Positions 5,265 to 54,800 of a DNA stretch of 64,000 bases are shown in pieces; position 1 is the stretch's first letter, and every line of letters starts with the position of its first letter. The DNA comes from an uncultured Micavibrio sp. GTDB taxonomy: Bacteria; Pseudomonadota; Alphaproteobacteria; Micavibrionales; UBA1664. Under the pieces are notes generated by a model that saw nothing but the letters and a program-made list of their open reading frames with translations, was not told where the DNA came from and did not search any database. The stretch is taken from assembly GCA_964531715.1 (NCBI GenBank), contig CAZHEE010000002.1, positions 97,676-161,675 of the forward strand, in the 5' to 3' direction. The position numbers and the translations under genes are program-made.

Positions 5265-5268
5265 GATT

Positions 5269-6225
5269 TTATAAATCCCTTATCATTCTGTCCCAAACAT
5301 CACCTAAACGTCTCATATTGCGAGGGGAATAATATTGCGCATTCGGCTCACGATTGATAATAAATTGAAAAACATAATTTTCCGGTTCAAGCCCCATACG
5401 TAAATCTCTGATAATGATATCATTTTCAATTTGAACAACGTCATAGAAGCCTTTGGTAAACCATTGCAAGCGTTGCACGGCAAAAGTATTTTCAAGTCCG
5501 GAAAGAAGCGTTTTATCAAGAGGATAAACCTTATAGTCAATCTGCTTCGTATCATCAAACAGGGAATAATAGCCAATACGGTAGCTTTCATCCTCCATGA
5601 TAACCACCCGCCATAAAATTGTATTAAAAGGCGTTGGTTGAACCAGTATCTTTGCACTATCCGTCATTTGCGGATTGCCCACAACAATGGAACGGACATA
5701 GGCTTGCGCCCCGACACTCCATGCCAAATACAGCGTTGAAATAGCAAGCCCTATATGAATGAGCCTCCTGCTTTTTAAAAATAAATAAGCAATGACAAAC
5801 CCTAAAAAAGGCAATGTATATAAAGGGTCTATGATGAAAATTGAGCCAACGCCTACTGGAGGCACACTTAAAGGCCAGAAAAGCTGCGTTCCATAGATGG
5901 TCATGGCATCGAGCAAAATATGCGTGACGATAATGGCAAAAAACGCCAGATGCGTTTTAAAATCTTTGAAATTGAGATTAAACCATTTTATTTTTGAGGC
6001 TAACCAAACAAGTATCGGCGTCATAAACAGGCAAAAAATATAGGAATGTGTTGCGCCGCGGTGATAGGTGAAGTCGGATACGGGATCCCCCATCGGGACG
6101 AAGACATCAAGGTCAGGGACTGTGCCTATAATCGCGCCAAGAACCGCTGATTTTCGCCCTATCTTTGAGCCTAAAAAAGCGGCCCCGATGGCCGCTCCTA
6201 AAGTTGCTTGTGTGAGTGAGTCCAC
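5269..6225 (-). CDS. Membrane-bound metal-dependent hydrolase (YdjM/DUF457-like)
   Basis: 318 aa, polytopic. N-terminus MDSLTQATLGAAIG and a His-rich pattern (YHRGATHS, THILLD) resemble this family. Confidence 0.5.
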   Translation of the reverse strand: MDSLTQATLGAAIGAAFLGSKIGRKSAVLGAIIGTVPDLDVFVPMGDPVSDFTYHRGATHSYIFCLFMTPILVWLASKIKWFNLNFKDFKTHLAFFAIIVTHILLDAMTIYGTQLFWPLSVPPVGVGSIFIIDPLYTLPFLGFVIAYLFLKSRRLIHIGLAISTLYLAWSVGAQAYVRSIVVGNPQMTDSAKILVQPTPFNTILWRVVIMEDESYRIGYYSLFDDTKQIDYKVYPLDKTLLSGLENTFAVQRLQWFTKGFYDVVQIENDIIIRDLRMGLEPENYVFQFIINREPNAQYYSPRNMRRLGDVWDRMIRDL

Positions 6226-6230
6226 TTATG

Positions 6231-8159
6231 TCAGCTCCCATCCCCAAAATATCGAAGCTGTGGTCCCGCGCCAGTTTTAAGTCTTAAACCATTATTTTTT
6301 GTGTTACCGCGGCTGTCTTCCTCTAACTGCCTTGCATCCTGCGCATTATACTGAAAGTCATCAGGGCTTCGTATTTGGTCAATTCTCTTCTGCCTTGCAC
6401 GCTCATCTTGCTCATTATATTGAAAATCATCGGGGCTTCGAGCGGCATTCCTAGTAGCCTGCCGTTGCTGTTCATCTTGTGCATTATATTGAAAATCATC
6501 GGGACTACGTGCTTGCTGACCTGATTGTCCCTCTAAAGTTTCGTATGTAGCTTGTACATCTGCGAGCTCAGCTTCTGCCTGTTCTAAATTTTCGCGCGCT
6601 TGCGCTACAGCTTGTATATAAGGCCTTTTACCCTTTCCCTTATTTCTGTTTGCTTCCAAAGCTTCTTCAGCATCGGCCAGTTCTTGCCTTGCGTCTGCTA
6701 CCGCCTCTTCAGCTTGATTTAAAGCAACCGGTGATAATTGACGATTAGAGGTGTTGTTATTCGAACCTGATACTCCATCAGCCGCTGTATTACTATTATT
6801 ACCTGCTGTTCTTGCGTATAGTTCTTCAGCTCTTTGCCTTGAAATTTCGCGCTCTTCTGGTGTCATTGGCACAAATCTGCCGGCTTCTCCTGAGGTAACT
6901 GTATCAAGCGCTCTGCTTAATTCATCGCCACGTATAACAGCCTCAATATATGCGGCCTGATCACCTTGCTTTTTCGCTTTCATTGCATCATCAGTTGCTT
7001 TATCAATATGTCTCGCTAATACCATTGCTTTGGTAGTATCTGCAATTTCAGTATCTTTTAATATGTCTTCCATAGTTCTGGAACCTTCTACACCTGCGCC
7101 TGAAGGTGTCACTGATTGACCTTCATTAGAACCTGTAGAGGTGTTGTTATTCGAACCTGATACTCCGTCAGCTGCTGCATTACTATTATTACCTGCTGTT
7201 CTTGCGTATAGTTCTTCAGCTCTTTGCCTTGAAATTTCGCGCTCTTCTGGTGTCATTGGCACAAATCTGCCGGCTTCTCCTGAGGTAACTGTATCAAGCG
7301 CTCTGCTTAATTCATCGCCACGTATAACAGCCTCAATATATGCGGCCTGATCACCTTGCTTTTTCGCTTTCATTGCATCATCAGTTGCTTTATCAATATG
7401 TCTCGCTAATACCATTGCTTTGGTAGTATCTGCAATTTCAGTATCTTTTAATATGTCTTCCATAGTTCTGGAACTTTCTGCACCTGCGCTTGAAGGTGTC
7501 ACTGATTGACCTCCATTAGATTCCATAGAGATGTTGTTATTCGAACCTGATACTCCATCAGCTGCTTTTGCGATGTCATTCACGTTTTTACCAATTTCGT
7601 CAATTTGCTTGACGACTTCTGGACTTACGCGGCTCGCTCCTGTGTTTTCATTCAGATTGCCTCCATTGCTAGATGGCGGATTGCTAGGATTCGAAGAAAC
7701 TGGCTTTAGCATAGCATTTGCAGCTTTTTGCAGGTCTGACATACCTTTATCAACACGTTTGAGACCTTCCATGGCCGCTTCCTGCTGAGTTGTATCTACA
7801 TTTCCCTGACCGCCATTTAAAGGTTCCTGTGAAGCTGAAACTTCCGGAAGAGGCACAGAATATTGTGCTAATACAGAAGTTTCGATCCTATCATATATTG
7901 CTTGCTTTTCTTCAAACCTTGCTTCCGCGGCTTCCAAAATGTTTTCCGCCCCCCTTTTATTGCGACCAGATGCGCTTTGATATCTTTGTTGAGCTTCCTG
8001 CAACTCCTGATAAGCCTGCCCCATTTCTATCTCTGCAGCATTTAATTCATAATAAAGATCGGAATCATCGACTGTTTGAGCATATAAAGGCAGAGCTGTA
8101 AAAGCCAAAACTGACAAAGCAACCCCAAAAAGATATGATTTAAATTTTGTATTCGGCAT
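6231..8159 (-). CDS. Secreted repeat protein (coiled-coil-like, Ser/Asn/Gly-rich linkers)
   Basis: 642 aa. Signal-peptide-like N-terminus MPNTKFKSYLFGVALSVLAFTALPLYAQ. Contains 130-aa tandem repeats and three C-terminal SPDDFQYN motifs. Confidence 0.6.
   Translation of the reverse strand: MPNTKFKSYLFGVALSVLAFTALPLYAQTVDDSDLYYELNAAEIEMGQAYQELQEAQQRYQSASGRNKRGAENILEAAEARFEEKQAIYDRIETSVLAQYSVPLPEVSASQEPLNGGQGNVDTTQQEAAMEGLKRVDKGMSDLQKAANAMLKPVSSNPSNPPSSNGGNLNENTGASRVSPEVVKQIDEIGKNVNDIAKAADGVSGSNNNISMESNGGQSVTPSSAGAESSRTMEDILKDTEIADTTKAMVLARHIDKATDDAMKAKKQGDQAAYIEAVIRGDELSRALDTVTSGEAGRFVPMTPEEREISRQRAEELYARTAGNNSNAAADGVSGSNNNTSTGSNEGQSVTPSGAGVEGSRTMEDILKDTEIADTTKAMVLARHIDKATDDAMKAKKQGDQAAYIEAVIRGDELSRALDTVTSGEAGRFVPMTPEEREISRQRAEELYARTAGNNSNTAADGVSGSNNNTSNRQLSPVALNQAEEAVADARQELADAEEALEANRNKGKGKRPYIQAVAQARENLEQAEAELADVQATYETLEGQSGQQARSPDDFQYNAQDEQQRQATRNAARSPDDFQYNEQDERARQKRIDQIRSPDDFQYNAQDARQLEEDSRGNTKNNGLRLKTGAGPQLRYFGDGS
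6335..6515 (-). repeat. Three spaced copies of a ~30-nt motif encoding RSPDDFQYN(A/E)QD
   Basis: TTATA(C/T)TGAAA(G/A)TCATC(A/G)GG... recurs at about 6345, 6415 and 6485. Confidence 0.7.
6751..7565 (-). repeat. 390-bp tandem repeat, about 2.1 copies, inside the secreted-protein gene
   Basis: Antisense shadow ORFs all begin MLLFEPDTPSAA at 6751, 7141 and 7531, exactly 390 bp apart. A 98-aa block (SRTMEDILKD...RTAGNNSN) is identical in two copies. Confidence 0.9.
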
Positions 8160-10240: not shown

Positions 10241-12838
10241 TTATGCCGCTTGGCTGTTCACCTTTTCGCCTTTGAAGGATAAATCGTTGCCGTCGTAAGC
10301 GACATGCACAATCATATTATCCGTAATCTCCCCTTTAAGCAGAGCCTCGGCCAGCGGATTTTGAAGCTCGCTTTGAATGACCCGTTTTAAAGGTCGCGCA
10401 CCATAAGCAGGGTCGTATCCTTTATCTGCAAGAAACGCCAAAGCCTTCTCATCCAGCTCAATTTCGATTTGGCGATCTTCAAGGAGCTTCCTCAAACGCT
10501 TGAGCTGTATCTCGACAATTTGCGCCATCATTGCGCGTTCCAACCTACGGAACAACAATATATCATCCAGACGATTGAGAAATTCCGGTCTGAAATAGCC
10601 GCGAACTGCCTCCATCACGCCCTCGCGGACATCCTCAACATCTTCGCCCTCTTTCTGATTGACCAGCAAATCCGCACCGATATTCGATGTCATAATCAAA
10701 AGCGTATTGGTGAAATCAACCGTCCGGCCTTGCCCATCGGTCAGCCGCCCGTCATCCAAAACCTGAAGCAGGACATTAAATACATCCAAATGCGCTTTTT
10801 CAATTTCATCGAACAATATGACTTGATAAGGCCTGCGCCGCACCGCCTCGGTTAACACGCCGCCTTCCTCATACCCGACATAGCCGGGCGGTGCACCAAT
10901 CAAGCGCGATACGGAATGCTTCTCCATAAACTCACTCATATCAATGCGCACCATCGCGGTATCATCATCGAATAAAAATTCCGCTAAAGCCTTTGTAAGC
11001 TCGGTTTTCCCGACACCGGTCGGCCCCAAAAACATGAAGGAGCCAATCGGACGATTCGGGTCTTGCAAGCCTGCGCGAGCGCGGCGGATCGCATTTGATA
11101 CGGACATAATTGCCTGATCCTGCCCCACCACGCGTTTTGCCAAGGCCGCCTCGAGGTTGAGCAGTTTTTCTTTTTCACCCTCAAGCATTTTGGACACGGG
11201 AATCCCCGTCCATTTTGCAATGACTTCGGCAATATCCTCATCTGTCACTTCCTCATTAATCATCGCGGATGTTGACAAATGGCTCGCCTCCTCGACCTTG
11301 GCTTCCAGTTCAGGAATTTTACCGTAAGATAACTCCCCGGCCTTTGCCCAATCATTATCACGCTCGGCACGTTCAAGCTCGGCACGGGCTTTATCCAGCT
11401 CCTCTGCCCATTGCTGCGCCTTGTTCAGCTTTTCTTTCTCCGCCTGCCATTGCGAAGTGAGGTCTGCCGATTCTGATTCTAGGGCGCTCAAATCTTCTTC
11501 CAGCTTTTTCAAGCGGTCTTTTGACCCTTGATCTGTTTCTTTTTTCAGGGCTTCACGTTCAATTTTGAGCTGAATAATCTGCCGATCAAGCGCGTCCAAA
11601 GCTTCTGGCTTAGAGTCAACCTGCATCCGCAAGCGTGCCGAGGCTTCATCAATTAAATCAATCGCCTTGTCGGGTAAAAAACGATCCGTGATGTAGCGAT
11701 TGGAGAATGTCGCCGCGGAGACAATCGCCGCATCCGTCACGCGCACACCATGGTGAAGCTCGTATTTCTCTTTCAAGCCACGCAGGATTGAGATCGTATC
11801 TTCAACCGTCGGTTCGCTGATAAAGACAGGTTGAAAACGCCGTGCCAGTGCCGCATCTTTTTCAATATATTTGCGATATTCATCCAAAGTCGTTGCACCG
11901 ACCATGTGTAGTTCACCCCGTGCCAATGCAGGCTTCAACATGTTTCCTGCATCCATCGCGCCATCGGTTTTCCCTGCGCCGACAAGCGTATGAAGCTCAT
12001 CCAGAAACAGAACGACTTCGCCCGCGGCTTCTTTAACCTCATCAAGCACACCTTTCAAGCGTTCCTCGAATTCCCCGCGGAACTTCGCCCCTGCAATCAG
12101 TGAGCCCAAATCAAGAGCCATTAATCGCTTGTTTTTCAGGCTTTCAGGCACATCACCATTGATAATACGAAGCGCGAGCCCTTCCGCAATTGCGGTTTTT
12201 CCCACACCCGGGTCGCCAATGAGTACAGGGTTATTTTTGGTTCGGCGCGATAGCACCTGAATAGTGCGGCGAATTTCCTCATCACGCCCGATGACTGGGT
12301 CGAGCTTCCCACTTCGCGCCACTTCTGTTAAGTCACGCGCATATTTCTTAAGCGCATCAAATTGATCCTCGGCACTTGCGGAATCAGCCGTACGACCTTT
12401 ACGGCGGTTATTGATGGCTTGGTTCAAATGCTGATCATTCACGCCGCTATCTTTTAACGCGGCGGAGACTTCCGTTTTCTTCGCCATAATCATGGCCTGC
12501 AACAAACGTTCGGTTGTGATAAAGCTGTCGCCTGCTTTTTCCGACAATACGCGTGCCTCGTCTAAAATCTTGGCAAGGTCATTGGACATACGCAATCCTT
12601 GTGCGCCTGCGCCTGTCACCTGAGGGAGTTTCGCGAGATTTTTATCAAGGATGGCTCGCAATTTTTGTAAATCACCACCAGCGGCGGTTACGAGGGAGTC
12701 CGTTACATTCTGATCATCATCTAGCATCACGCGGAGCAAATGTTCAGGCTCTAGCGATTGGTTGTCTTTCCTGAGCGCGAGTGTTTGCGCCGCCTGAACA
12801 AAGCTTCTCAGCTTTTCCGTCATTTTTTCGAAGTCCAT
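10241..12838 (-). CDS. clpB: ATP-dependent chaperone ClpB
   Basis: Two AAA+ modules ([15 protein letters not shown] and [15 protein letters not shown]) with a long coiled-coil middle domain. Start set at [10 protein letters not shown] (12838). Confidence 0.95.
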
Positions 12839-12869
12839 TATTAGGCCCCTCTCTTTATTATTTTCCAAT

Positions 12870-12894
12870 CGTCATTCCGGCGCAGGCCGGAATC
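12870..12894. repeat. Solo hairpin, family D (CGTCATTCCGGC-GCA-GCCGGAATC)
   Basis: 9-bp perfect stem ATTCCGGC(N)GCCGGAAT with the same CGTCATT...AATC frame as family A/B arms. Confidence 0.7.
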
Positions 12895-13878: not shown

Positions 13879-15111
13879 TTATCTGTGGATTGCGGTAAAT
13901 ACGCGGTCATGCCCCCCAAGGTCACGGATAACGCGATAGTCGGTAAAGCCAGCACCCCTCGCAATTTCTGCGATTCGTCCACACTGCCCTGCCCCATGCT
14001 CAAGGGCAAGCAAACCACCTTTTTTTAAGTAGTTTCGAATCTGTGGAAGAATCAAGCGATAAGGTCCCAGTCCATCTGCACCACCATCCAAAGCACTATG
14101 CGGATCATAGTTTTTCACTTCCGCTTGAAGCGTTGGGATATCACAACTTTCAATATAAGGCGGGTTTGAGATGATAATATCAAACTGCCCCTCAACCGAG
14201 TCGAACCAATCAGATAGAATAAAAGTAACGCGACTTGAAAGATTTTGTTTTTCGGCATTGAGCCGCGCCACTGTCAGAGCCTCTTTAGAAATATCAGTCG
14301 CGATACCGATTGCATTTGGTAGCTCATTCAAAAGTGTGAGAATCAAACATCCTGAGCCTGTACCTAAATCTAGTATTTTTAAAATTTCGTCATTACACGT
14401 TTTATCTTGAGATAAATACGTGTAATCCATTTTAGTATTTTCCGATGGATTGCACGTATTTTGCTGACGCAAAAAAGTGCAATGACGTAAGACTTCCTCA
14501 ATTAAAGTTTCACTATCAGGGCGCGGGTCAAGGACATGCTCATTCACGTGAAAATCCAGCCCGTAAAACTCTTTCACGCCGATAATTTTTGAGAGAGGCT
14601 TACCTTTTAACCGTTCAGCAAGCATTGATTCAAGTTTTTGATGTTGTTCGGCTGTAAGATTTAAAGAATCATTCGAAATTAGATCTGCATCGCGCATGCC
14701 CGTGATATGCTTAAGCATCATCCGCGCCTCTAATGATGACCCGAGTTGTTTTGAGATATATCTTAAAAAAAACTCGTCATTACACGTTTTACCTTTAGGT
14801 AAATACGTGTAATCCACCTCACCTGTAATCTCGCCATATAAATCAAGCCACTCAGGATTATCTTCTTGGATAAGGTTTATTTTCCATTCTCTGGAATATC
14901 GCCTTAGTCGCTTTTCCCACTGAACAGCATCTTCCCAATTACCGCATTGCCGGTACCAGACAAGTTTTTTTACATTATATTTTGTTGTAAATTTGCTCCC
15001 TATATTATTTTTATGTTGCCAAGTCCGACCAATTAAATTGGATGAAATACCCTTATAAATTGTGCCATTTTTTTGCTTTGCTAGCATGTAGACGTAAAAA
15101 TCTTTTTTCAT
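13879..15111 (-). CDS. prmC: Release-factor glutamine N5-methyltransferase PrmC, read as one ORF with an N-terminal GIY-YIG domain and carrying an in-frame palindromic insert
   Basis: 410-aa ORF. Residues 1-98 align with the stand-alone GIY-YIG ORF at 16315..16611. The rest has PrmC hallmarks ILDLGTGSGCL (motif I) and IISNPPYI (motif IV) and sits directly downstream of prfA. The true prmC initiation codon is uncertain; an in-frame GTG lies inside the hairpin at about 14818. Confidence 0.75.
   Translation of the reverse strand: MKKDFYVYMLAKQKNGTIYKGISSNLIGRTWQHKNNIGSKFTTKYNVKKLVWYRQCGNWEDAVQWEKRLRRYSREWKINLIQEDNPEWLDLYGEITGEVDYTYLPKGKTCNDEFFLRYISKQLGSSLEARMMLKHITGMRDADLISNDSLNLTAEQHQKLESMLAERLKGKPLSKIIGVKEFYGLDFHVNEHVLDPRPDSETLIEEVLRHCTFLRQQNTCNPSENTKMDYTYLSQDKTCNDEILKILDLGTGSGCLILTLLNELPNAIGIATDISKEALTVARLNAEKQNLSSRVTFILSDWFDSVEGQFDIIISNPPYIESCDIPTLQAEVKNYDPHSALDGGADGLGPYRLILPQIRNYLKKGGLLALEHGAGQCGRIAEIARGAGFTDYRVIRDLGGHDRVFTAIHR
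14388..14487. mobile_element. ORF-less 100-bp palindromic mini-element (family A left hairpin + 18-nt spacer + right hairpin) inside prmC
   Basis: Left hairpin CGTCATTACACGT..ACGTGTAATCC (14388..14428) and right hairpin GGATTGCACGT..GTGCAATGACG (14447..14487). Translated in frame as HCTFLRQQNTCNPSENTKMDYTYLSQDKTCNDE just before PrmC motif I. Confidence 0.8.
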
Positions 15112-30182: not shown

Positions 30183-31625
30183 GTGACACATACTAAAGTT
30201 TTGTATAAAACTTTAAATGTGAATGAAGAATCTTTAACTGCCGAATTGAATAAGTCATCCAATCCGCAAATGGCGGATAGTTTTACCGATGATGATATTC
30301 GCGTCATTACCGACGCTCTCCATGATGAGCGGGCATCAGAGGTTCAATCGCTTGTCGATGATTTGTCCGTCACGCAATCGGCGGAATTGCTCGAAAAAAT
30401 TATCCCTGATGATAGGGCAACTTTAATAGAGAATTATCTCGCACATTTTGATGCCGAGACTTTTGTCGAGCTGGATAACGATGTACGCCGTTCCATTTTG
30501 GAGGCGATGGAGCCGATAACGGTCGCGACAATCATTTCGGAACTTGATTCCGATGATGCGGTTGAGATGATTGAGAAGCTCGACCCGATTTTCCAAAAGC
30601 AGATTATTAAAAAGCTTTCGGCAAAAAACAGGGCAACGATTGAAGAAGGCCTGACCTATCCCGAAGAATCTGCCGGCCGCTTGATGCAGCGTGAATTTGT
30701 TGCCATTCCGCAATTTTGGACGGTCGGAAAAACCATTGATTACCTTCGTGCCGCCGCCGAAGAACTCCCTTACGAGTTTTTCGATATTTTTGTTATAGAC
30801 CCGCTTTATCACGTTGTCGGGGAACTGCCGCTTAATCAGATTATCCGCTCAAAACGCTCTGTTAAAATTTCGGATTTGCTGGAAGGGCGCGAAATTCACT
30901 ATATTGATGCGACAATGGATCAGGAAGATGTCGCGCGTATCTTTCAGGATAAAAACATGACATCTGCGCCTGTGGTGGATAATAACCATCGCCTGATCGG
31001 TGTCATAACGTTTGATGATATTCATGATGTTATCGACCGCGAGGCTCAGGAAGATATCTTGCGTTTGGCAGGGGTTTCGACCAGCGGGTCGGACATGTAT
31101 CGCGATATTCTGAACACAACAAAATCACGCTTTACATGGCTCTCGGTTAATTTGTTGACAGCTATTTTAGCCTCGCTCGTCATAGGCTTATTCGATGCAA
31201 CGATTGAGCAGATTGTCGCCCTTGCCGTTCTGATGCCGATTGTCGCCTCAATGGGAGGGAACGCAGGGACTCAAACGCTGACCATTACTGTGCGCGCGCT
31301 TGCAACCAAGGCTCTTTCCCGCACCAATATGATGCGAATGATCGGTAAGGAAACTTTTGTCGGCTTTTTAAACGGTTTAGCTTTCGCGTTTATTATCGGC
31401 GCTGTCACTTATTTCTGGTTTGACAGTAGCCTGCTTTCGGTTGTGATAGCCGTTGCCATGGTAATTAATCTCATCATTGCAGGGTTATTCGGTATCGTCA
31501 TTCCGATTATTCTTGATAGGATCGGGATTGATCCCGCCCTCGCCTCATCAGTTTTTCTTACAACTGTGACAGATGTTGTCGGCTTTTTTGCTTTTCTAGG
31601 TTTAGCGGCAATAGTTTTGATTTAA
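30183..31625 (+). CDS. mgtE: Magnesium transporter MgtE
   Basis: 480 aa. N-domain, tandem CBS (EIHYIDATMDQEDVARIF, NHRLIGVITFDDI) and a C-terminal 5-TM domain with MPIVASMGGNAGTQ. GTG start; an alternative start is possible. Confidence 0.9.
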   Translation: MTHTKVLYKTLNVNEESLTAELNKSSNPQMADSFTDDDIRVITDALHDERASEVQSLVDDLSVTQSAELLEKIIPDDRATLIENYLAHFDAETFVELDNDVRRSILEAMEPITVATIISELDSDDAVEMIEKLDPIFQKQIIKKLSAKNRATIEEGLTYPEESAGRLMQREFVAIPQFWTVGKTIDYLRAAAEELPYEFFDIFVIDPLYHVVGELPLNQIIRSKRSVKISDLLEGREIHYIDATMDQEDVARIFQDKNMTSAPVVDNNHRLIGVITFDDIHDVIDREAQEDILRLAGVSTSGSDMYRDILNTTKSRFTWLSVNLLTAILASLVIGLFDATIEQIVALAVLMPIVASMGGNAGTQTLTITVRALATKALSRTNMMRMIGKETFVGFLNGLAFAFIIGAVTYFWFDSSLLSVVIAVAMVINLIIAGLFGIVIPIILDRIGIDPALASSVFLTTVTDVVGFFAFLGLAAIVLI

Positions 31626-31637
31626 ATTTATTCCCAC

Positions 31638-31728
31638 CGTCATTGCGAGAAGCGGAGCGACGAAGCAATCCATACAGTCTCTAACATCTTATGGATTGCC
31701 GCGGTCGCGTTGCTCCCTCGCAATGACA
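31638..31728. repeat. Palindromic element family B, copy 1 (91 bp) between convergent mgtE and pcm
   Basis: CGTCATTGCGAG..GCAATCCATA-(centre)-TATGGATTGC..CTCGCAATGACA. Each arm is itself an ATTGC...GCAAT hairpin. Confidence 0.8.
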
Positions 31729-31738
31729 ACCTTAAAAA

Positions 31739-36465: not shown

Positions 36466-36516
36466 GCTTGGATTGCAGATATTCTATAGTCATAGGTAAC
36501 TAAAAAATTTTTCAAC

Positions 36517-36630
36517 CGTCATTGCGAGGGAGCCCCTGCCTTCGTAGAGGGCAGGCGTTGCGACCGCGGCAATCCATAGAACATTAAAGACTGTATGGAT
36601 TGCTTCGTCGCTCCGCTTCTCGCAAAGACG
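36517..36630. repeat. Palindromic element family B, copy 2 (114 bp, inverted relative to copy 1, with an extra internal hairpin) between convergent cckA and lpdA
   Basis: CGTCATTGCGAGGGAGC[CCCTGCCttcgtagaGGGCAGG]CGTTGCGACCGCGGCAATCCATA...TATGGATTGCTTCGTCGCTCCGCTTCTCGCAAAGACG. Confidence 0.8.
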
Positions 36631-36658
36631 AATCTTTTAGTCTCTATAAGATGGAAAG

Positions 36659-39534: not shown

Positions 39535-40533
39535 ATGACTAAAAATCTGATCGGGATTGGAAATGCGGCTGTGGATGCCGTCGTGCATGTCCCTGATGAC
39601 GCCGCCTTAGATAATCTTAACCTTGAAAAAGGCGGATGCGTTTTTGCCAATGACGGTGATGCCATCATGGCGCGCGCTTTAACGCAATATCCTGACAGGC
39701 TGGAAACCCCCGGCGGTGCGGCGGCCAATGCGCTTGCATCCTATGCCGCACTGGGTGGACGCGCACGATTTATCGGCAAGGCGGGGCAGGATGCGCATGG
39801 CGAATTTTTCAAACAATCCATGCAGGACTTCAATATTGCCTATGACACCGCGCCGACTTTGGAAACCCAATCGACCTTCCTTTTTGCCTTTGTCACCCCT
39901 GATAAAGAGCGGACATTTCTCTCCAACCATGGGGCAAGCCATAAAATTGAGACTACAGATGTGAATGAGGCATGGTTTTCACCTGATACAAGCCTGATTA
40001 TGGATGGCTATATGCTCATGTCAGGCGGCGGCCCTGCCGCGATGTTTCAGGCCATGGACTATGCCAAAAAGCATGATAGCGAGATTATTTTCATGCCGTG
40101 CAGCCTATCCGTTATTGACCATAACCGCGCGATGATTGACGAGATTATTGACCGTTCCCACGCCATCATCTGTAACGAAGATGAGGCGAAAGCCATTGCC
40201 TGCACAGTCGATTTGGATCAGGCCTGTCAAAGGCTTTATCATGGCGGTGACTATGATTGGGGGGTTGTGACCATAGGTGCACTGGGCGCATTTTACTTTA
40301 AAGGTAATCAATCTGGCCACGTGAATATACCCTATCGCCCTGACTTTATTAACAACACAAATGGGGCTGGTGATGCGTTTTCAGGGGGGCTCATTTATGG
40401 GCTTCATCATGATATGGATATAGAGGATGCGACCACGCTCGGTCACCATTGCGCCATCCATGTGATACAGCAGGATGGCCCTCGCCCTGCAGGCTGGCTC
40501 AATCATCTTTTAACCTGCCAAAAGACGGCTTAA
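39535..40533 (+). CDS. PfkB-family sugar/nucleoside kinase
   Basis: 332 aa: GGAAANALAS, and the C-terminal ATP/anion-hole motif TNGAGDAFSGGLIYGL. Confidence 0.8.
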   Translation: MTKNLIGIGNAAVDAVVHVPDDAALDNLNLEKGGCVFANDGDAIMARALTQYPDRLETPGGAAANALASYAALGGRARFIGKAGQDAHGEFFKQSMQDFNIAYDTAPTLETQSTFLFAFVTPDKERTFLSNHGASHKIETTDVNEAWFSPDTSLIMDGYMLMSGGGPAAMFQAMDYAKKHDSEIIFMPCSLSVIDHNRAMIDEIIDRSHAIICNEDEAKAIACTVDLDQACQRLYHGGDYDWGVVTIGALGAFYFKGNQSGHVNIPYRPDFINNTNGAGDAFSGGLIYGLHHDMDIEDATTLGHHCAIHVIQQDGPRPAGWLNHLLTCQKTA

Positions 40534-40536: not shown

Positions 40537-41508
40537 ATGCTTAATCCGTTTCAGGCCATGCAAAAGGCAGTGGACATCGTTAATGACAGTGAGCATATCA
40601 AAAATAAAATTGCCGCCTGTTTGTTTCAAACATCACCGTCATCCTCCGACTTGATCGGGGGATCTTCTTCCGAGGGGAATCCTTTGGTCAAGCCAAAGGA
40701 CGACGTTTACATAGCGCGATATAATCATCGCCCTGACAGACTAAAAAACAAGCTCTCACCCGATAAGCGTATAGGTGACAGCAGCCAGTTCCTCCATGCC
40801 GAGGTCGCCTGCATCTTCGCCGCTGACTTTCCGACTGAAGGCGCAAGCCTATGCATCACTGACCCGTTTTGCCCGAATTGCGCGAAAGCCATCAGCGAGG
40901 CGGGGATAGCCCATGTTTATATTGACCATAAAGGTATTGAGAAAGATTTTTTTGTCCGCAGAAGAGATGTGTTTGAGGCCTTGTCACTCAATATTTTGAG
41001 GCAAGAAGGCATTGGTGTTGCCATTCTTAATCGTAAAAAAAGAACATATCAAATAGTGCTTGAACCACAAAAAATTTCTAAAAAAGAAACAGATTTAATT
41101 ATTTTAAAACAATCAGATAATTCAATTTCATTATCTGATTTATTAAAGAAAAATAAAGCGTTTTATCCTGATAAAAATTTCGCGATTGCTTTCATCAAAG
41201 ATAGAGAAGATCAAATTTGCGCTTTTACTATATTTGAAAAATCTTATGATAGCCTTCACGATGTTAATCCATCCGACAAATACAGTGTGATGATTGACCC
41301 CGTCAACCGCCTCCTCTATCACTGCGCGCGCCATGGCTATCAAATTTTGAATCAAGAGATAGCAACAAATATCACCCCCTCGAACCGCGCAATCGTGAAT
41401 GCAATCGGTTATAATATTCACAAGATTATAAGCACTTGGCATGATACAGAGGGCAGTAACCGCAATATTTTAAACGATTTGGATATAATCTCTGTTAAAT
41501 CTTGCTAA
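40537..41508 (+). CDS. Cytidine/deoxycytidylate deaminase-like zinc-binding protein with a C-terminal extension
   Basis: 323 aa. HAEVACI ... DPFCPNCAKAI (H-A-E / PCxxC zinc motif). Residues 34-56 are encoded by a palindromic insert. Confidence 0.6.
   Translation: MLNPFQAMQKAVDIVNDSEHIKNKIAACLFQTSPSSSDLIGGSSSEGNPLVKPKDDVYIARYNHRPDRLKNKLSPDKRIGDSSQFLHAEVACIFAADFPTEGASLCITDPFCPNCAKAISEAGIAHVYIDHKGIEKDFFVRRRDVFEALSLNILRQEGIGVAILNRKKRTYQIVLEPQKISKKETDLIILKQSDNSISLSDLLKKNKAFYPDKNFAIAFIKDREDQICAFTIFEKSYDSLHDVNPSDKYSVMIDPVNRLLYHCARHGYQILNQEIATNITPSNRAIVNAIGYNIHKIISTWHDTEGSNRNILNDLDIISVKSC
40637..40705. repeat. 69-bp (23-codon) palindromic insert, family C-like, in frame in the deaminase-like gene
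   Basis: Left arm CGTCATCCTCCGACTTGATCGGGGGATC. The right arm contains a perfect 8-bp hairpin TCCTTTGG-tcaag-CCAAAGGA followed by CGACG. Encodes PSSSDLIGGSSSEGNPLVKPKDD. Confidence 0.55.
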
Positions 41509-47793: not shown

Positions 47794-48448
47794 AATCAAA
47801 AAACCGATTATACCAAACACTATTTATGGTCATCTTGCCATCTTAAAACTGTGTCAGATTGCAGGATATGATTATTATCTAGGAGATGCCGCAAAAAGAA
47901 CATTAATTGTCTTAGCGGGCTTTAGCGGCACTGATGGTATGTGCTATCCCTCTATATCTCAAATTGCAAAAAATTTAGGTGTTTCTCGTGCAGCAGTGCA
48001 TAGACAAATCAATATTCTAGTGAAACAAAACTATTTGAAAGCAGAAGGACGCTATTGTCCAAAAACAAAAAGAAGAAAAACCAATATATTTATCTTTAAC
48101 ACTGATTTGGCGAGACAGTATTCTTCATATCCTGAAATATTTTGTGAGAGTAATGTAACCTCTGTGGTTACATTCCTTGTAGCCGTATTATATTACATGG
48201 ATTGTTACCCCGATATGTTACAGGGGCATGAAACCTCAAAGAGTTACACAAATAAAACAGATAAAATAAAACAAAATAAAGAAACCAACTTGAATAAAAC
48301 AGATGATTTGCTTGTCGGGAGGAAAAAGTTGCACGCATACGCATGGGAAAAACAAAAATCTCGTCAAGAGGAGAGTAATGTAAGCGATGAAATGAAAAAT
48401 AGCTTTAAAGATTTAGACTATGAATTATCCAGTCATTTTAAATTCTAA
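47783..48448 (+). CDS. Winged-helix DNA-binding protein (possible island replication/regulation protein)
   Basis: 221 aa. HTH-like SISQIAKNLGVSRAAVHRQINILVKQNYLK. GTG start overlapping alpA. Confidence 0.45.
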   Translation: MPIEIKKPIIPNTIYGHLAILKLCQIAGYDYYLGDAAKRTLIVLAGFSGTDGMCYPSISQIAKNLGVSRAAVHRQINILVKQNYLKAEGRYCPKTKRRKTNIFIFNTDLARQYSSYPEIFCESNVTSVVTFLVAVLYYMDCYPDMLQGHETSKSYTNKTDKIKQNKETNLNKTDDLLVGRKKLHAYAWEKQKSRQEESNVSDEMKNSFKDLDYELSSHFKF

Positions 48449-48567
48449 ACAACTTGTAGAATTCTCGTTATCGATGAGGCGTGACACTAAAACTATGAAT
48501 GAAAAAGATGCAATTGAATATTGCGTACAAAAATATCAGGAAAAATTAGAACAAGAAATTAAGAAAC

Positions 48568-49176
48568 GTGTGGATACATGAACTTTTTTATTCAGAATTA
48601 CCACATTATTTCGGTAAAAAAATGCAGTTAGTGACACACAGCAGTAAATATGGATATCGCCGTATGACGGTTGAGGATCTGGATTGTATCACTGTCGCAG
48701 ACTGCAAAAAAGGTTACTGTAATATTTTGTCCGGCCATCAGCGCATTTTAATATCAAAACCATCGTTATTTTCAGATGCACTGTTTATAACATTACAAAC
48801 ACAGAATTTCGACTATTTGCAGTCGATTTACCTTGAAGAGACAAAACAGCCTTTTGGTGGATCACGGCTATGGCTAAAATGCCCTGATTGCGACAGACGA
48901 TGTAACAAGCTTTATTGGCATCAATCACTATTCAGTTGCCGTGTTTGTCTTGGTTTATCTTACCGAAGCCGCCAGAGTTCATTTTTGAATTATCAGGAAC
49001 ACAAAGCTTTGAAAATTGAGCATTGGCTCGGTGAATTTTGCCACTACATGACACGCCCATTATCGGAACAAATACCATCACGGCCTAAATATATGCGTAA
49101 AAATACATATCAGAGATTGATTGTCGAACTGAATGATTGCAAATCTGGGATACAGAGCAGAAATGCCCTAATCTAG
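48568..49176 (+). CDS. Hypothetical zinc-ribbon protein
   Basis: 202 aa. CPDCDRRCNKLYWHQSLFSCRVCLGLSYRS (CxxC-N17-CxxC). Start codon uncertain. Confidence 0.45.
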   Translation: MWIHELFYSELPHYFGKKMQLVTHSSKYGYRRMTVEDLDCITVADCKKGYCNILSGHQRILISKPSLFSDALFITLQTQNFDYLQSIYLEETKQPFGGSRLWLKCPDCDRRCNKLYWHQSLFSCRVCLGLSYRSRQSSFLNYQEHKALKIEHWLGEFCHYMTRPLSEQIPSRPKYMRKNTYQRLIVELNDCKSGIQSRNALI

Positions 49177-49575
49177 TTTTGGTAAATCATCAATTCCACG
49201 ATTGCGTAAATATTTATTCATCATCAATTCAGTATCATTTGTTTCATCACTGCCATAATCTAGATCCGGAAAACGGCACATAGCCATTCGCTGGTATTTA
49301 GAACAATTTGTTTCAATAGATATGTCTGTAACATCATTTTCTTTGCAATAAACAGGCTCTATACATCTGATATCTATTCCTTCTAGTGCAAGATTTTCCC
49401 TAAAATATTTCTCAAATGTTTTAATATCCAAAGTGTTTTGAGGCTCGATGCTTTGTTTCTCTTTAAAAACAAGGAAATAATAATCGACAATAAACTGGGG
49501 ATTAAAACTGTAACGCTTAGCTAATTTTCGTGATCTTACTTGCCCTACAAATATATTATAAATTAATCTAATCAT
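49168..49575 (-). CDS. Hypothetical soluble protein (downstream gene of the two-gene cassette)
   Basis: 135 aa. The ATG overlaps the upstream gene's stop (ATGATTAG). RBS AAAGG. Confidence 0.5.
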   Translation of the reverse strand: MIRLIYNIFVGQVRSRKLAKRYSFNPQFIVDYYFLVFKEKQSIEPQNTLDIKTFEKYFRENLALEGIDIRCIEPVYCKENDVTDISIETNCSKYQRMAMCRFPDLDYGSDETNDTELMMNKYLRNRGIDDLPKLD

Positions 49576-49963
49576 GATTACCTTTCTTAAATATTAGAAT
49601 TTCTTTTTTGATGCTAAAAACAATGTGACTGACTATGACAACAGAAAAAATGCGATAAATATACACCCATGCTGGAACATTTTGACCAGATACTTCTAGT
49701 TGCCATGGATTTATTAGAGTATAAGTCAAAATGACGGTCACCAAAGATGCCACTGGATACGTTATTTTAGAAAAGTGTTTATATGTTTTTCCCAATATCC
49801 CAAGCAGTAAGCCTGTTATAAATATAGAAGGATCTAAGATAAAAGCAAAAATGCTGCCCATCATTACAGCTGCCGCATGCTTATCAACAAAAAATATTAC
49901 AAATGAAAATATAACAATTAATGGAAAAAATAGCAAATGAGGTCTCTTAAAATTCTTTAGCAT
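49568..49963 (-). CDS. Hypothetical small polytopic membrane protein (upstream gene of the cassette)
   Basis: 132 aa from the ATG at 49963 (MLKNFKRPHLLFFPLIVIF...), preceded by the RBS TAAGGAG. Several hydrophobic segments. Confidence 0.55.
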   Translation of the reverse strand: MLKNFKRPHLLFFPLIVIFSFVIFFVDKHAAAVMMGSIFAFILDPSIFITGLLLGILGKTYKHFSKITYPVASLVTVILTYTLINPWQLEVSGQNVPAWVYIYRIFSVVIVSHIVFSIKKEILIFKKGNHD

Positions 49964-49990
49964 GGTCTTTTTTCTCCTTATAATTAATAC

Positions 49991-50160
49991 GGCTACCAGA
50001 TAACTCTGGCAGCCGGGGAGTTTAGAACCATCACGTGAATGGCGTGACGTATTGACGCCATGCGCTTTTATATTTCGCCACCTCCCCGACCATAAGTCGA
50101 GAGGCAACACAGATAACGGCAGTGTCTAGAATGCCGCACGTGAAGGGTTCTAATGCCCTA
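49991..50160 (-). other. G+C-richer structured non-coding region (candidate leader RNA or recombination/binding site)
   Basis: 10-bp hairpin at 49991..50014. Hairpin ATGGCGT/ACGCCAT at 50039..50061. Long-range TAGAACC..CACGTG / CACGTG..GGTTCTA pairing. GGGGAG/CTCCCC pairing. Direct repeats CAGATAAC(N)GGCAG. Confidence 0.4.
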
Positions 50161-50263
50161 GATACGAAATCACCGCATCTATTCAGATAATCGCTTTGTG
50201 AAATCTTTAAGTCAACCTAAATTAAGCATATTAAATTAATTTGGTTTAAAACAATATACGTAA

Positions 50264-50404
50264 CATCAACCGCCTGAATTTCTAAATGCCGTTCGTCAAA
50301 ATTTAGGACATTCATCTATTGATACGACGCTATCCAGTTATGGGCGATTATCTTCGTATGACCAGCGCAGGATTATCGCCGAAAACAAAGGGCAATTCGC
50401 TTGA
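50264..50404 (+). pseudogene. C-terminal remnant of a second tyrosine recombinase
   Basis: Translates to ...NAVRQNLGHSSIDTTLSSYGRLSSYDQRRIIAENKGQFA*. LGHSSIDTT..Y is the box II / catalytic Tyr region. No upstream catalytic domain is present. Confidence 0.65.
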
Positions 50405-50653
50405 TCGCATGGGAGGGGCAATTTAACCGATGCCCCTATTCCACAAAAAATACAAACATGTCACCATAACATCATCAAATATCAAAATAATAGAATCCTA
50501 TGACCGAAGAACAAAAACAACGCCTTGACCGCAATATAAATTTGTAAGTTTTATCTATGAAAACATTACTGCTTAAAAATCGGAAAGCATGCTGTAAAAT
50601 AAAAGCCGCATCATTAACTATTTCTTTAATGTTTACATATTATATTACTTTTT

Positions 50654-51229
50654 ATGGAGGAATATTACACACAAAAAGACATTGCGGATCAGTGGCAAAA
50701 AATATCGGATGAAGCGATAAAGAAAGCCGGTGAAAGCAAAAGCGATTTTCGTGCCGATGCAGTTTATATAGGAGGTATGACGGTCATTGGGGGCGGGTTG
50801 ATTGCCACCTTAAATGGTGGTCAATTATCATCTCTGTTTCTTGCGGCGGCGGCATTGACTGGTGTTTTATATTCTCATGTAAAACATACATATAAGAAAA
50901 AATATTATGAGGCATTTGCCTCTCATGCATTGGATCAAAAAGATAATAGCATTATTTTGCAATCAGATAATCCATTGACACTTCCAAGATTTGATAAGGA
51001 AAACAAAGAATTTGGAATAAACTATAAACATCTTACAAGCGGTTTAAAAAGTATTTTCAGCCTTAGAACAGTAATTGTCGCGGCAGTGGTTGGCACATCG
51101 GTTATGGCATATATGCATCCAGATAAAGAGCAACCAGATATATTACGACCAGAAGAAAAGGAAACCAATGCTACCCAAGGATCCTTTTCGGCACCGAAGA
51201 CATCTCTGCGTCCTGTCCCTCATCCATAG
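50654..51229 (+). CDS. Hypothetical membrane protein
   Basis: 191 aa. Two central hydrophobic helices (GGMTVIGGGLIATL..LFLAAAALTGVLY) and a third near residue 145. Confidence 0.4.
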   Translation: MEEYYTQKDIADQWQKISDEAIKKAGESKSDFRADAVYIGGMTVIGGGLIATLNGGQLSSLFLAAAALTGVLYSHVKHTYKKKYYEAFASHALDQKDNSIILQSDNPLTLPRFDKENKEFGINYKHLTSGLKSIFSLRTVIVAAVVGTSVMAYMHPDKEQPDILRPEEKETNATQGSFSAPKTSLRPVPHP

Positions 51230-51413
51230 AAACAGTATTTTCAAACCAATCGATAATGGATGGAATATTTTTACCGACATAAGCACATCCGCCAACAAAG
51301 ACTGCCGCTATTGCAATAATAGCCAGAAATTCTTTGACCTGCATATGGGGCACACCATCATCTTTGAGACGGTCATTAAAAGCATCTTTTGCCTTATTGA
51401 TAAAACTTTGCAT
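51171..51413 (-). CDS. Hypothetical single-pass membrane protein
   Basis: 80 aa with one TM (FLAIIAIAAVFVGGCAYV). Convergent with, and overlapping, the 3' end of 50654..51229. Confidence 0.3.
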   Translation of the reverse strand: MQSFINKAKDAFNDRLKDDGVPHMQVKEFLAIIAIAAVFVGGCAYVGKNIPSIIDWFENTVSMDEGQDAEMSSVPKRILG

Positions 51414-51549
51414 GATGTTTTATCCTATATAATATGAAAAAAGTCAACCTTTTCTAATAGAGTGTCAGTAAAAATTGAGTGCATAAAACATAATTAATTC
51501 TTATAAGTAAAAGTAGTTTGCATTATCTATCATAAAAAGGATTTATAAA

Positions 51550-51819
51550 ATGAATGAAATACCAGAAATGATTAGCCGCAATGGCGACCCTATTGAAATA
51601 GCTGAAATGAAAAATTTCTTTAACTACGCAATAAAAGAAAGGGTAAACCAATATATCACGGAAATATTTTACGATTCAAAAAGCAATCTTTGTGAAGTAA
51701 AACTTTCTGAATTGGTTGTTTATGGCGACCCTATCTATCAAAAAATTCATAGTCTTGCAAAAGTTACGATCAAACAATTCAGTATTTTAGACCAAATTGA
51801 CCATTCTGTATTTTCTTGA
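51550..51819 (+). CDS. Hypothetical protein
   Basis: 89-aa ORF with RBS AAAGGA upstream. No motif recognised. Confidence 0.35.
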   Translation: MNEIPEMISRNGDPIEIAEMKNFFNYAIKERVNQYITEIFYDSKSNLCEVKLSELVVYGDPIYQKIHSLAKVTIKQFSILDQIDHSVFS

Positions 51820-51829
51820 TACGTCAATA

Positions 51830-54800
51830 TCACTTTGGTAAAAAGTCTATTTTGTCTATCTCTTGCATTACGCTTGCGGTGTCGCGGAGGGCGATTACTA
51901 TGCGTTGGTAGTGCATAATGTCATCAACCGATAGATTGCGCCCTTTGCGGTCTTTGAGCCATTTTTGCGCGGGTTGGTATCCACCGATATAAAAGTCCCA
52001 TGCACCTTGTGGCACTTCGCCGAAATATTGGGTTTCGTTGATATAGACTTTGCCGTCTTCATATCGTGGCTTGACAACCTCGTGATCGCCATCAATGGGA
52101 TAGGTTGTGATGGGTATATCTAGCGCGGATGATTCCATCAAATGCAGGGCACGAAGTTTTGCCCCTTGCTCAACCAGCGCATTATAACTTTTAACATCAT
52201 TAGGAAACGGAATACGCGGAAAGTCCGATTTTAAAAATTCGGCATAGCGTGCGCGGTATGCAGACGCATGAAGCACAGCATAAATATAATCAAACAGGCT
52301 TTCCGGCGTCACATCGGGTATGGCCATTTTAATCTTGGCGTATATTTTTGGATCGAAATTCGGAACTTTCTGCTCTACCCCATCCATGAGTAATTCATAG
52401 CGATAGAGGGGGAAAGTACAACTAATTTCAGATGTTCTGTTTGAAACAAGTGAACTTTCAACAATTCCCTTATGAATAAAAACATGGTGAAAATCCGATG
52501 ATTTTTGCTGTTTGGAGACGTTCAATCCGATATTGCCCTTATTTAGCATATGCTTCATTACTTCGCCTCTAGGCATACAATGAAACCCTTTTGATTTGCC
52601 TGTGAAATAAGTCCACTTATTATCAAATGGTCTATATGCAATTTTTTGAATATTTTCTGGATCAAGATTTGTATCTTTTAGTTCTTTTTGTGCTAAATCT
52701 ACTTTCCAATCACGGGCATCTTTACCCAAACTATATTTGGCTCTTGCATCCTCAACAGGCAAAGAAGAAAAATCATGAATAGTATTTAATAAACTTTCTT
52801 TTGTTTCGTAAATTGTAAATTTGTCACGCGCGGTTACAATGCCGACAGAATTACACGGGAACATTTTATCGAGAGAAAAACCTTTCTCATATTCGGCCAG
52901 AGTTTTAAAATCCTTGGGAACCATAAAATATTGAGGGTTTGCGGGGTTTAATACGTTCCATTTTATGTTTTGGATATTTGTTTTTTCCAATTCGTTATAT
53001 TTAGATTGACGATGACCCCACACATCAACATGGTGAATGATTGCCAAATCCTTACTTTTTTTATCGCTTTTGACCGCAATCATAATTGCAACACCAGCTT
53101 GAATATCAAAAATATTTTGATCAATGTCGCCCGATGGCGTAGTCTCTTTCTTTTTAGAATTACCATGAAGGTCGATGATATAAATATCATCAAAAGTATT
53201 CATTAAATGCCAACGCATCCCACGGAATGTTGGATTATCTAAATATGAATGGCTTGTAATATAAGCCAAAACGCCTTCGCCATTTTTTTCGACGTAATGC
53301 TCGCCCATGCGAATAAATTTGGCGTAATCATCATTAAGCCATTTGGAATTTTTCTCCTGTAACTTAATTTTTCCACCAGGCTCTTTCTTATAATCATCCA
53401 TAAGGGACATAATCCAATCACCCTTGTTTGAGCTTTCACCACTATAAGGCGGATTCCCAAATGCTACCATGATCGGCATATCGCGTTTGATACGGCTGGC
53501 CTCGTTTGCTTCCCTTGATAACCATGATGCGAATAATGTATCGGCATCGGGGTGGTGTTCCTCCAGCGCGTTTGTCAGATACACGCCAACCCTTGGTGGA
53601 TTGTTCGGGTTGGATGGTTTATATCCTGTTTCCTGTAGCAATAAATCCAATTTCATGTGGCACATGGCGTAGGAGGCCATGAGTAATTCAAAACCGTGCA
53701 GACGTGGCAACAAGTCGTTTTCGACGTAACTGCTCCATATACCTTGTTGTCCTTGATATTTTTGCCAGATTTGTTTCACGGCCTCCGCCATGAATGTGCC
53801 TGTCCCCGTTGCAACGTCCAGTAATTGCACCTTGTGGACTTCTATTTCATCCTTAATCTTTCCCTTTTTACCAACGCGGTCAGATTCGACCTTGATTTTG
53901 ATTTTGGATTTATCGGCAATGCCGTTTGGTAAATCGAAATGGATTTTTAAAACATCATCAATGGCGCGAACAATGAAATTAACGACTGGTTCGGGCGTGT
54001 ACCAAACCCGCGTGCCTTACGCAAGGATTTATCGTATTCGGCCAAGAATGTTTCATAGAAATGCAGGATAGGGTCATTCTGCCCCGTTGCCGTTCCAAAA
54101 TCCTTTAATACCGCATCCAAATCGGAAAATAAGAAGACTTCGCATAGTGCATCAACAATCCAAACGACTCGTTCATCCAATTCCGACCCTGCCACGTATA
54201 AAAATAGCTGGCGTAAGAATGGGTTTGATTTTGGGATGAGTAGTAACGCTTCGCTTCGTGAGAAATTATCGGGCGTTGTATCGTGCAGGCGTGCCGTGAA
54301 CAAGCCATAGGCGATTGTTTGGGCATAGACATCGGCAAATTGCTCTTCGTCCATGTCATGCACAAGGATATTTTGAAATGCCTTTAATTGATCTTTTAAT
54401 GAACTATCCGCTTCATCCGTTAAAACCAGCATAAAGACATGTTTCATCAATTTGGCCTTTTGCGCCATCATGGATGCCAGTTTCTTTGCCGATTTAATTG
54501 TTTGCCCTTGGAATGATGCAAAATCGATTAAGAGTGTTTTAAGGCGGTCATAGTTTTCAGGGATGGGTTGGATGGTATCGCCAACAATTTCGGCAATTTG
54601 AACCACCTCAACTTTTTTCACCATGAAGGTAAAAGCGAAATTCTAAATAATCGGTCAGGACAAGGTTATCGAGTGACTCAAGGTATCGTTTTAATTGATC
54701 CGTTTTTTCAGTTTTGGATAGGTCAATGCCAACATCCTTGGCCTCCAAATACCCAACATCAATTTTACGCCTGTGCAGGATAAAATCAGGCGCACCACAT

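Follow-up and report, generated by a model that had tools for sequence, protein, structure and literature searches.

A 69-nt palindrome with CGTC...GACG ends (CGTCATCCTCCGACTTGATCGGGGGATCTTCTTCCGAGGGGAATCCTTTGGTCAAGCCAAAGGACGACG) lies at positions 40637–40705 inside a gene for a dCMP-deaminase-like protein (40537–41508, plus strand) in a 64-kb stretch of DNA from an uncultured Micavibrio species, the whole of which is referred to here as the window. The palindrome belongs to a dispersed repeat family, sits in the reading frame of its host gene, is absent from most orthologues of that gene and coincides with a low-confidence loop in the structural model of the protein. It is with little doubt a dimer of CGTC-tagged repetitive extragenic palindromes (REPs) in head-to-head (HH) orientation, of the CGTC-3/4 type and belonging to a published class, that the enzyme tolerates in frame. 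Such a dimer would have entered the codons of the beta1–beta2 turn of the deaminase without target duplication, and the enzyme would tolerate the product, a disordered loop of 23 residues. Ribosomes would read straight through the insert because its length is 3 x 23 nt, its reading frame is free of stops and it occupies a turn at the protein surface. This explanation, extended below to the history of the element, is considered the best one, and likely to be correct as a whole.

Overall, the element is an imperfect palindrome composed of two hairpins, each with a 9-bp stem and a 5-nt loop, with the CGTC/GACG tags outermost; its assignment draws on the sequence, on a covariance model (CM R1) and on orthologue alignments. 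The left REP unit (40637–40666, plus strand), delimited by a unit scan and by alignment to the covariance model, is formed by the tag CGTC at 40637–40640, the stem ATCCTCCGA/TCGGGGGAT with eight Watson–Crick pairs and one T.G pair, the loop CTTGA and the tail CTT. A spacer of about 9 nt, not counting the 3-nt tails, follows at 40667–40675 (plus strand; alignment A3), and both its sequence and its length vary between lineages. The right REP unit (40676–40705, minus strand), defined by sequence and unit scan, has its tag CGTC at 40705–40702 in minus-strand reading, the stem GTCCTTTGG/CCAAAGGAT with a G.T first pair, again the loop CTTGA, and the tail TCC. On the plus strand, this right arm contains a perfect 8-bp hairpin, TCCTTTGG-tcaag-CCAAAGGA, at 40680–40700, and the left loop is the reverse complement of the right one. 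Both stems are 9 bp long and of the type that starts with AT, the first pair of the right one having decayed in the window copy. The arms represent a TTTG/CAAA variant in which the stem is preserved by paired C>T and G>A changes versus the family consensus ATCC(C/T)C(C/T)GG...CC(G/A)G(A/G)GGAT. The RNA fold of the 69-nt stretch reaches –33.3 kcal/mol (z = –3.8), and only one in 200 shuffled sequences is as stable. The initial annotation, made from the letters alone, had described a 69-bp in-frame imperfect palindrome and a perfect 8-bp right-arm hairpin with a tcaag loop, and both are borne out by the sequence and by the open reading frame (ORF) at 40537–41508; the 23 codons concerned, PSSSDLIGGSSSEGNPLVKPKDD, occupy 40636–40704, one base to the left of the palindrome ends. 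Read-through is predicted to yield the peptide SSSDLIGGSSSEGNPLVKPK; the left unit encodes (P)SSSDLIGGS and the right unit, read on the plus strand, NPLVKPKDD.

In tag, stem, loop and dimeric layout the element agrees with the CGTC-tagged REPs, which carry a terminal CGTC (or TGTC/CCTC), an 8–9-bp stem beginning with AT, a 4–5-nt loop and a 3-nt tail that is mostly CCA (Di Nocera, De Gregorio & Rocco 2013, BMC Genomics 14:522; PMC3733652). According to the same source, the loops fall into a few major sequence types; the units occur mostly as HH dimers with the tags outside, chiefly in Alphaproteobacteria, Micavibrio among them; they have no associated transposase; and intragenic dimers encode 20–30 amino acids, some in the same frame as the window element. 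By the definition of PMC3733652, the latter is an HH dimer. It resembles the CGTC-3 and CGTC-4 types in its tag, its 9-bp stem starting with AT, its CTTGA/TCAAG loop, the presence of a tail, the tags-outside arrangement, an alphaproteobacterial host near Micavibrio and an intragenic location. Published intragenic cases include an R. palustris CGTC-3 element, PSWPGLSRPSTSSSKAVQVSVDARVKPGHD, in dnaE2 and a Rickettsia conorii CGTC-4 element, DTVVKPRYD, in uvrB (PMC3733652), and the peptide frames are alike: PSSSDLIGGS...NPLVKPKDD in the window versus PSWPGLSRPSTS...VDARVKPGHD for the former and DTVVKPRYD for the latter. Stem and loop lengths, as well as the peptides in supplementary S3, fit both CGTC-3 and CGTC-4. 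The window element differs from the usual CGTC REPs in its tails (CTT and TCC instead of CCA; metagenome relatives have mostly CCA or CCG), in its spacer of about 9 nt compared with the usual 20–100, and in its stems, which are of the AT-shifted TTTG/CAAA variant and include one decayed tag-proximal pair (GGACGAC for GGATGAC). A deaminase host is missing from the list of intragenic cases in PMC3733652, which also reports no conservation of a single intragenic copy across deeply diverged lineages.

Membership of a dispersed palindromic family, proposed in the initial annotation, is confirmed by copies outside the window. A metagenome scan with the right-arm pattern ATCCYYYGGTCAAGCCRRRGGA recovered at least 120 contigs, several of them with paired plus- and minus-strand copies. 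Among the matches listed, the module GG-ATCC(C/T)C(C/T)GG-TCAAG-CC(G/A)G(A/G)GGA-TGAC is conserved and 20 full HH dimers could be extracted; a full metagenome dimer such as GTCATCCTCCGG-CTTGA-CCGGAGGATCC, 17 nt and GGATCCTCCGG-TCAAG-CCGGAGGATGAC has the same architecture as the window 69-mer. The CTTGA loop runs throughout the metagenome copies and is also found in 6 of 15 units in relatives. CM R1, built on 15 metagenome dimers from unrelated contigs, none of them of the window's lineage, matches 40638–40704 over its entire length (model positions 1–76 of 76) with 61.3 bits and an E-value of 1.3e-12. The training copies were gathered by a pattern taken from the insert's own right arm, which makes the match of that arm partly a matter of construction, whereas that pattern contained neither the left arm nor the tags nor the overall layout. 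Within the window, related palindromic families occur in intergenic DNA and share a common outline, with GTCAT...ATGAC ends and an inner ...ATCC - loop - GGAT... core. These other palindromes have, to judge from their sequence, the same architecture, and they are placed in different subfamilies because their matches to CM R1 reach E-values of 0.002–10 only. The 64-kb window holds no second copy of the exact subfamily. Scanning the window for ungapped hairpins under strict settings proved too stringent and gave one element only, and a loose tag-plus-stem scan gave about 30 chance matches, which were taken as background so that canonical units alone were used. The TTTG-type subfamily is described by the pattern ATCCTTTGRTCAAGCCAAAGGA; matches to the pattern GTCATCYYSGAC were not above chance, and Rfam has no family matching at the element site.

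The host gene encodes a 323-aa protein with two domains, the N-terminal one being dCMP/cytidine-deaminase-like according to the ORF list, Pfam, homologues, AlphaFold and Foldseek, and it belongs to the cytidine/deoxycytidylate deaminase superfamily. The Pfam profile PF00383 scores 25.1 bits at a cut-off of 25, and the zinc motifs HAE (residues 87–89) and PNC...C (C112 and C115) are invariant in alignment A1. Several of the 289 homologues found are labelled deoxycytidylate deaminase by their source records, the nearest relatives being from Micavibrio-like metagenome-assembled genomes (MAGs), and the best Foldseek matches of the model are the dCMP deaminases 2w4l, 4p9c and 1vq2, with probability 1.0. 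The AlphaFold model has a mean confidence (pLDDT) of 86.8, and values below 50 are confined to residues 38–54, within the insert, between strands 26–30 and 58–62; the beta-strand flank that had been guessed at from the letters is thereby upheld. The model supports a picture in which the insert would form a disordered surface loop in the beta1–beta2 turn, tolerated by an enzyme whose HAE and PCxxC motifs remain intact. The same protein with the insert is found in three separate JGI metagenome assemblies and in one NCBI record. Immediately upstream, a PfkB-family kinase gene (39535–40533, plus strand; ORF list and synteny), used here as a second phylogenetic marker, ends 3 nt before the deaminase start; the two genes are probably co-transcribed, and their synteny is retained in the loci L001, L205, L206 and L207. 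The window deaminase is 45–51% identical to relatives whose adjoining PfkB proteins are 73–75% identical, lacks a segment FEELT.G.TP found in many homologues, and has a best match of 45% among GTDB species representatives. On sequence grounds, it is a fast-evolving copy with intact catalytic motifs.

Comparison with orthologues, the check recommended in the initial annotation, shows how restricted the insert is. The 23 residues are missing in 29 of 31 homologues (alignment A1), and across 120 homologues the turn between the CLF and ARxN motifs (F30 to N63) is almost uniformly short: 87 have 11 residues there and 31 have 12–16, which leaves the window protein and P0002 as the two with 34 or 36. 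In a set of 190 orthologues, to which P0192 (locus L205) was added later through an exhaustive search of representatives, the insert is absent from 186; all internal insertions of at least 12 amino acids lie at this one turn, in the window protein (P0001), P0002 (L001), P0123 (L129) and P0192. These four lineages have 23, 25, 23 and 23 net extra codons, all open and in the same frame. Excision of exactly 69 nt restores the 7-residue turn of insert-less orthologues, and comparison of the window sequence with those orthologues reveals no target duplication or flanking direct repeat at the element ends. A homologous segment in orthologues had been named beforehand as the outcome that would speak against an insertion. 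Such segments do occur in P0002 and P0192, but they do not overturn it because at the DNA level they are the same REP dimer; the insertion is shared. Three extra turn residues are seen in P0027 (L206) and P0025 (L207), with the sequences DPLNDD and DPVKQD; both genes start at 1501. They might be what is left of NPLVKPKDD; with about 67% nucleotide identity across 8 codons, this idea is no more than suggestive and is not relied on.

At the DNA level, P0002 (L001, a Logan assembly) carries the same dimer in the same place, at L001 5105–5171, and P0192 (L205, from JGI) carries it at L205 2530–2599. The tag begins 10 nt past the Phe codon in the window, L001 and L205 alike, and the frame is identical. 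The left arms (CGTCATCCTCCGACTTGATCGGGGGATCT in the window, CGTCATCCCCCGACTTGATCAGAGGATTA in L001 and TGTCATCCTCCGACTCGATCGGGGGATCT in L205) are nearly identical, as are the right arms (ATCCTTTGGTCAAGCCAAAGGACGACG, ...GGATAACG and ATCCTTTGATCAAGCCAAAGGATGACA, respectively): the left units of the window and L001 share 20 of 21 nt from the tag through the first half of the stem to the loop, and their right units have a 22-nt run, ATCCTTTGGTCAAGCCAAAGGA, in common. In L205 both ends read TGTC, and the first pair of the right stem, G.T in the window, is A-T in L001 and L205. The spacers between the arm blocks, of 13, 13 and 16 nt in the window, L001 and L205, cannot be aligned. Outside these three carriers, the TTTG/CAAA variant was not found in 1.88 Mb of fetched DNA, nor among the 131 matches listed in the metagenome scan, the latter being weak evidence. 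The fourth carrier, the Micavibrio-like MAG locus L129 (P0123), has a different CGTC dimer, at 4653–4724 of a gene spanning 4559–5560; it sits in the same beta-turn with its junction offset by 3 nt, has loops CTTCC and ACGAG and arms resembling other subfamilies, and its nearest relatives, P0008 and L128, are without the element.

The arms are conserved in a manner that differs from the rest of the gene. When the codons of the window, L001 and L205 are aligned three ways, 15 of 19 arm codons keep an invariant third position, versus 48 of 290 (17%) elsewhere in the gene (Fisher p = 2e-8), and restriction to codons with invariant amino acids leaves 10 of 11 in the arms versus 27 of 106 elsewhere (p = 3e-5). 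The best 19-codon window in the remainder of the gene has 8 invariant third positions, and in the spacer every codon varies at positions 2 and 3. The changes that do occur in the arms are scattered over codon positions, unlike the pattern left by protein-level selection. A structure of two small hairpins fitted on all four copies is 90% paired and has 6 compensatory pairs, a result matched by 2 of 500 shuffles, all six pairs coming from the comparison of L129 with the other copies; for the single long hairpin that is the minimum-free-energy structure in RNAfold, covariation was not above controls. A reading in which the REP stem-loops are selected at the nucleic-acid level while being translated, and in which the element is repeatedly removed from, or re-inserted at, the exact codon position, is tentative and rather doubtful. 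The same doubt attaches to the part of it that would have the synonymous sites of the arms frozen across lineages in which other synonymous sites are near saturation, with spacer and peptide drifting. By analogy with REPs in general, and speculatively, the hairpins might stabilize or attenuate the message from their position 100 nt inside the gene next to pfkB.

Two histories of the element come into question: either it is an old insertion, constrained and lost precisely many times, or else it was inserted site-specifically, and both require an activity new for CGTC REPs, namely precise excision or targeted insertion. The same rare arm variant, the same junction and the same frame in the window, L001 and L205 suggest a single old insertion common to these lineages, with nucleic-acid-level constraint acting on the stem-loops but not on the peptide or the spacer, and with clean loss of the element from many related lineages. 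The conjunction of one old insertion, constraint and precise losses is favoured with modest confidence. Chance co-location is excluded because 1.31 Mb of related genomes hold only some ten genuine units of this kind, six of which are at this turn. Several observations nevertheless weigh against a single origin, the trees above all. In the PfkB tree, the window and L001 form a clade of 100% bootstrap support and 73–75% identity with the insert-less L125, which dispenses with the element, and L205 falls outside it; L129 forms another 100% clade with the insert-less L128. In the deaminase tree, P0002 groups with the insert-less L125p, P0003, P0004, P0005 and P0009 (85%), P0192 with the insert-less L127p, P0007 and P0017 (97%), and P0123 lies inside the insert-less P0006, P0008, P0011, P0012 and P0014 (99%); the carriers cluster together in 0–3 of 100 bootstraps. 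These are neighbour-joining trees of single proteins, and the window deaminase is a long branch in them. A single origin requires about eight or more codon-precise losses, we know of no excision mechanism for CGTC REPs, and a function of the stem-loops is putative only.

The competing history is recurrent site-specific insertion, whereby dimers of a CGTC subfamily would have entered the same beta-turn codons independently in three or four lineages through a machinery that recognizes the site, the arms being alike by virtue of a conserved family consensus and not of constraint on the copy. This is a genuine possibility, though an unlikely one. Three or four gains are more parsimonious than at least eight precise losses given the strongly bootstrapped patchiness; the L129 dimer, with its different arms and 3-nt offset, has the look of an event of its own; one turn accounts for all four internal insertions among the 190 orthologues; and wholly different spacers are expected if the source copies differed. 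Against this, HH dimers of the same family usually have conserved spacers (PMC3733652). At the turn, the insert-less P0017 has GAT GAC (SDDTH; L209) and P0009 has GAT AAC (TDNQW; L208), which are the bases of the terminal GATGAC (L205) or GATAAC (L001) of the element. The match may be target microhomology, as recurrent insertion would allow, or coincidence, turns often containing D and N, which would be expected at this one regardless. Also against recurrent insertion, no common motif is seen just 5' of the junctions of the three copies (ATCAC, AACGC and CACAT), and each copy has stem defects of its own, which suggest age. Further TTTG copies are lacking in the 64-kb window, in 7.6 kb of L001 and in 6.9 kb of L205, and dimers of this type are rare in the 1.31 Mb from relatives, so that nothing points to an active source population.

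Other explanations are less probable than these. The patchy distribution could also have arisen if the 5' part of the gene, together with the element, had moved between lineages by homologous recombination, and the N-terminal part is the one most alike between the window and L001 (nucleotide identity 0.72–0.76); that region is, however, conserved family-wide at the protein level, the flanks of the P0002 insert (ARYNQRP..L.DHF.PDVKIGQ) resemble those of the insert-less P0009 and not of the window, and unalignable spacers of different length speak against recent transfer of the whole element, all of which makes lateral spread improbable. It is also very improbable that the hairpin is bypassed by translational hopping of the T4 gene 60 or byps type, or removed as an RNA intervening sequence. 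Stable hairpins within coding sequence do invite the idea, and in yeast mitochondria mobile GC-rich hairpins in coding regions are bypassed (byps elements). The 23, 25, 23 and 23 extra codons are, however, all multiples of three, open and in one frame, as selection for read-through predicts; the insert has neither a stop codon nor matching take-off and landing codons; and proteins of R. conorii bearing Rickettsia palindromic elements (RPEs) are reported to be expressed (PMC3733652). The exact subfamily is single-copy in the window and the DNA complementarity between the arms is imperfect, as might be expected of a chance palindromic loop expansion or an assembly artefact with no repeat family behind it. 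Yet a model of unrelated contigs matches the site with an E-value of about 1e-12, the fold has a z-score of –3.8, the same insert is present in three JGI assemblies and an NCBI record, and homologous elements occur in L001, L205 and L129; chance or artefact is refuted as far as the methods allow and retains a negligible probability. An integron attC site was likewise considered and rejected.

The phenomenon is not new, as it matches the published intragenic CGTC REP dimers and the RPEs of Rickettsia (PMC3733652, PMC10969869). RPEs are in-frame palindromes in unrelated housekeeping genes, translated and compatible with the fold of the protein (Ogata et al. 2000, 2002; as summarized in PMC10969869 and PMC3733652), and R. 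conorii RPE-4 corresponds to CGTC-4 and RPE-6 to CGTC-1 (PMC3733652). The window element is likewise an in-frame palindromic insertion that is predicted to be read through, but it is not an RPE-1, which measures about 100–150 bp, encodes 35–50 amino acids and occurs in Rickettsia; here, a 69-bp element with a peptide of the REP-dimer type is found in a non-Rickettsia alphaproteobacterium of about 44% GC. With REPINs it shares two inverted REP units, a short spacer, the possibility of folding into one long hairpin, long persistence and the lack of an obvious target duplication (Bertels & Rainey 2011, PMC3116915; PMC3337134). REPINs, however, have a GTAG tag, are linked to a single-copy RAYT (Y1 transposase) gene and are described as extragenic. 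The intragenic window element, tagged CGTC, does not fit this REPIN/RAYT type, and CGTC REPs have no known transposase (PMC3733652; no search for one went beyond this window). The dRS3 elements of Neisseria are CGTC-1 (PMC3733652). They are short dispersed palindromes of the same super-family, some of them intragenic, and differ from the window element in their 8-bp stems, 4-nt loops and clustering. Correia and ERIC elements are MITEs (miniature transposable elements with inverted repeats). Terminal inverted repeats and target duplications characterize MITEs and neither is seen at the window element, whose clean 69-nt excision leaves no flanking direct repeat.

Several other palindromes of the window touch on the same theme. 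The prmC gene, cited in the initial annotation as a companion case, holds up as one: its ORF (13879–15111, minus strand) encodes 410 aa with GIY-YIG (4–78), PrmC_N (125–177) and MTS (244–321) domains, and palindromes of the long-loop CGTCATTACACG family at 14388–14487 and 14775–14835 lie in frame and contribute residues to the two gaps between domains. Through the upstream palindrome, a GIY-YIG ORF seems to have been joined to prmC as one reading frame. A CGTC-like unit (CGTC ATTCCGATT attcttgatag GATCGGGAT) at 31496–31528, in the 3' coding part of an MgtE ORF (30183–31625, plus strand), may be a third intragenic case in the window. A canonical CGTC-1-type unit at 12870–12893 (8-bp stem ATTCCGGC/GCCGGAAT, loop gcag) lies directly upstream of the start of the ORF at 10241–12868 (minus strand). 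Two RPE-like dimers of the form CCGTCATTGCGAG...GCAATCCA...TGGATTGC...CTCGCAATGAC at 31636–31730 and 36516–36633, 92% complementary over 71 nt, bracket, in inverted orientation, a 4.85-kb block that holds three ORFs. Apart from the palindromes, the ORF at 6231–8159 (minus strand) contains tandem repeats, with three 390-nt units (99% identical over 300 nt) and three 69-nt units, and a low-GC stretch at 48000–52000 (0.34–0.37 versus about 0.44 elsewhere), which adjoins a large ORF (51830–53830, minus strand) resembling methyltransferases with an NPPY motif, may be an acquired island.

In-frame REP and RPE palindromes are known, and the window adds another gene and an uncultured alphaproteobacterial lineage to them, supporting the view of surface turns as places where these elements insert and are translated. 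It also offers one intragenic REP dimer that can be traced across lineages whose host genes are about 50% identical, with stem-loops far better conserved than synonymous sites and with a presence that is patchy at a single nucleotide position. If the reading of selection at the nucleic-acid level is true, CGTC REP dimers would have a sequence-specific function in the operon, e.g. as a protein-binding site or as a hairpin that stabilizes mRNA or causes pausing, and a precise, possibly site-specific, cut-and-reseal machinery would handle them. The deaminase gene of this Micavibrio thus provides a concrete case for two questions: whether CGTC REPs are functional nucleic-acid elements, and how they are moved or excised without a known transposase.

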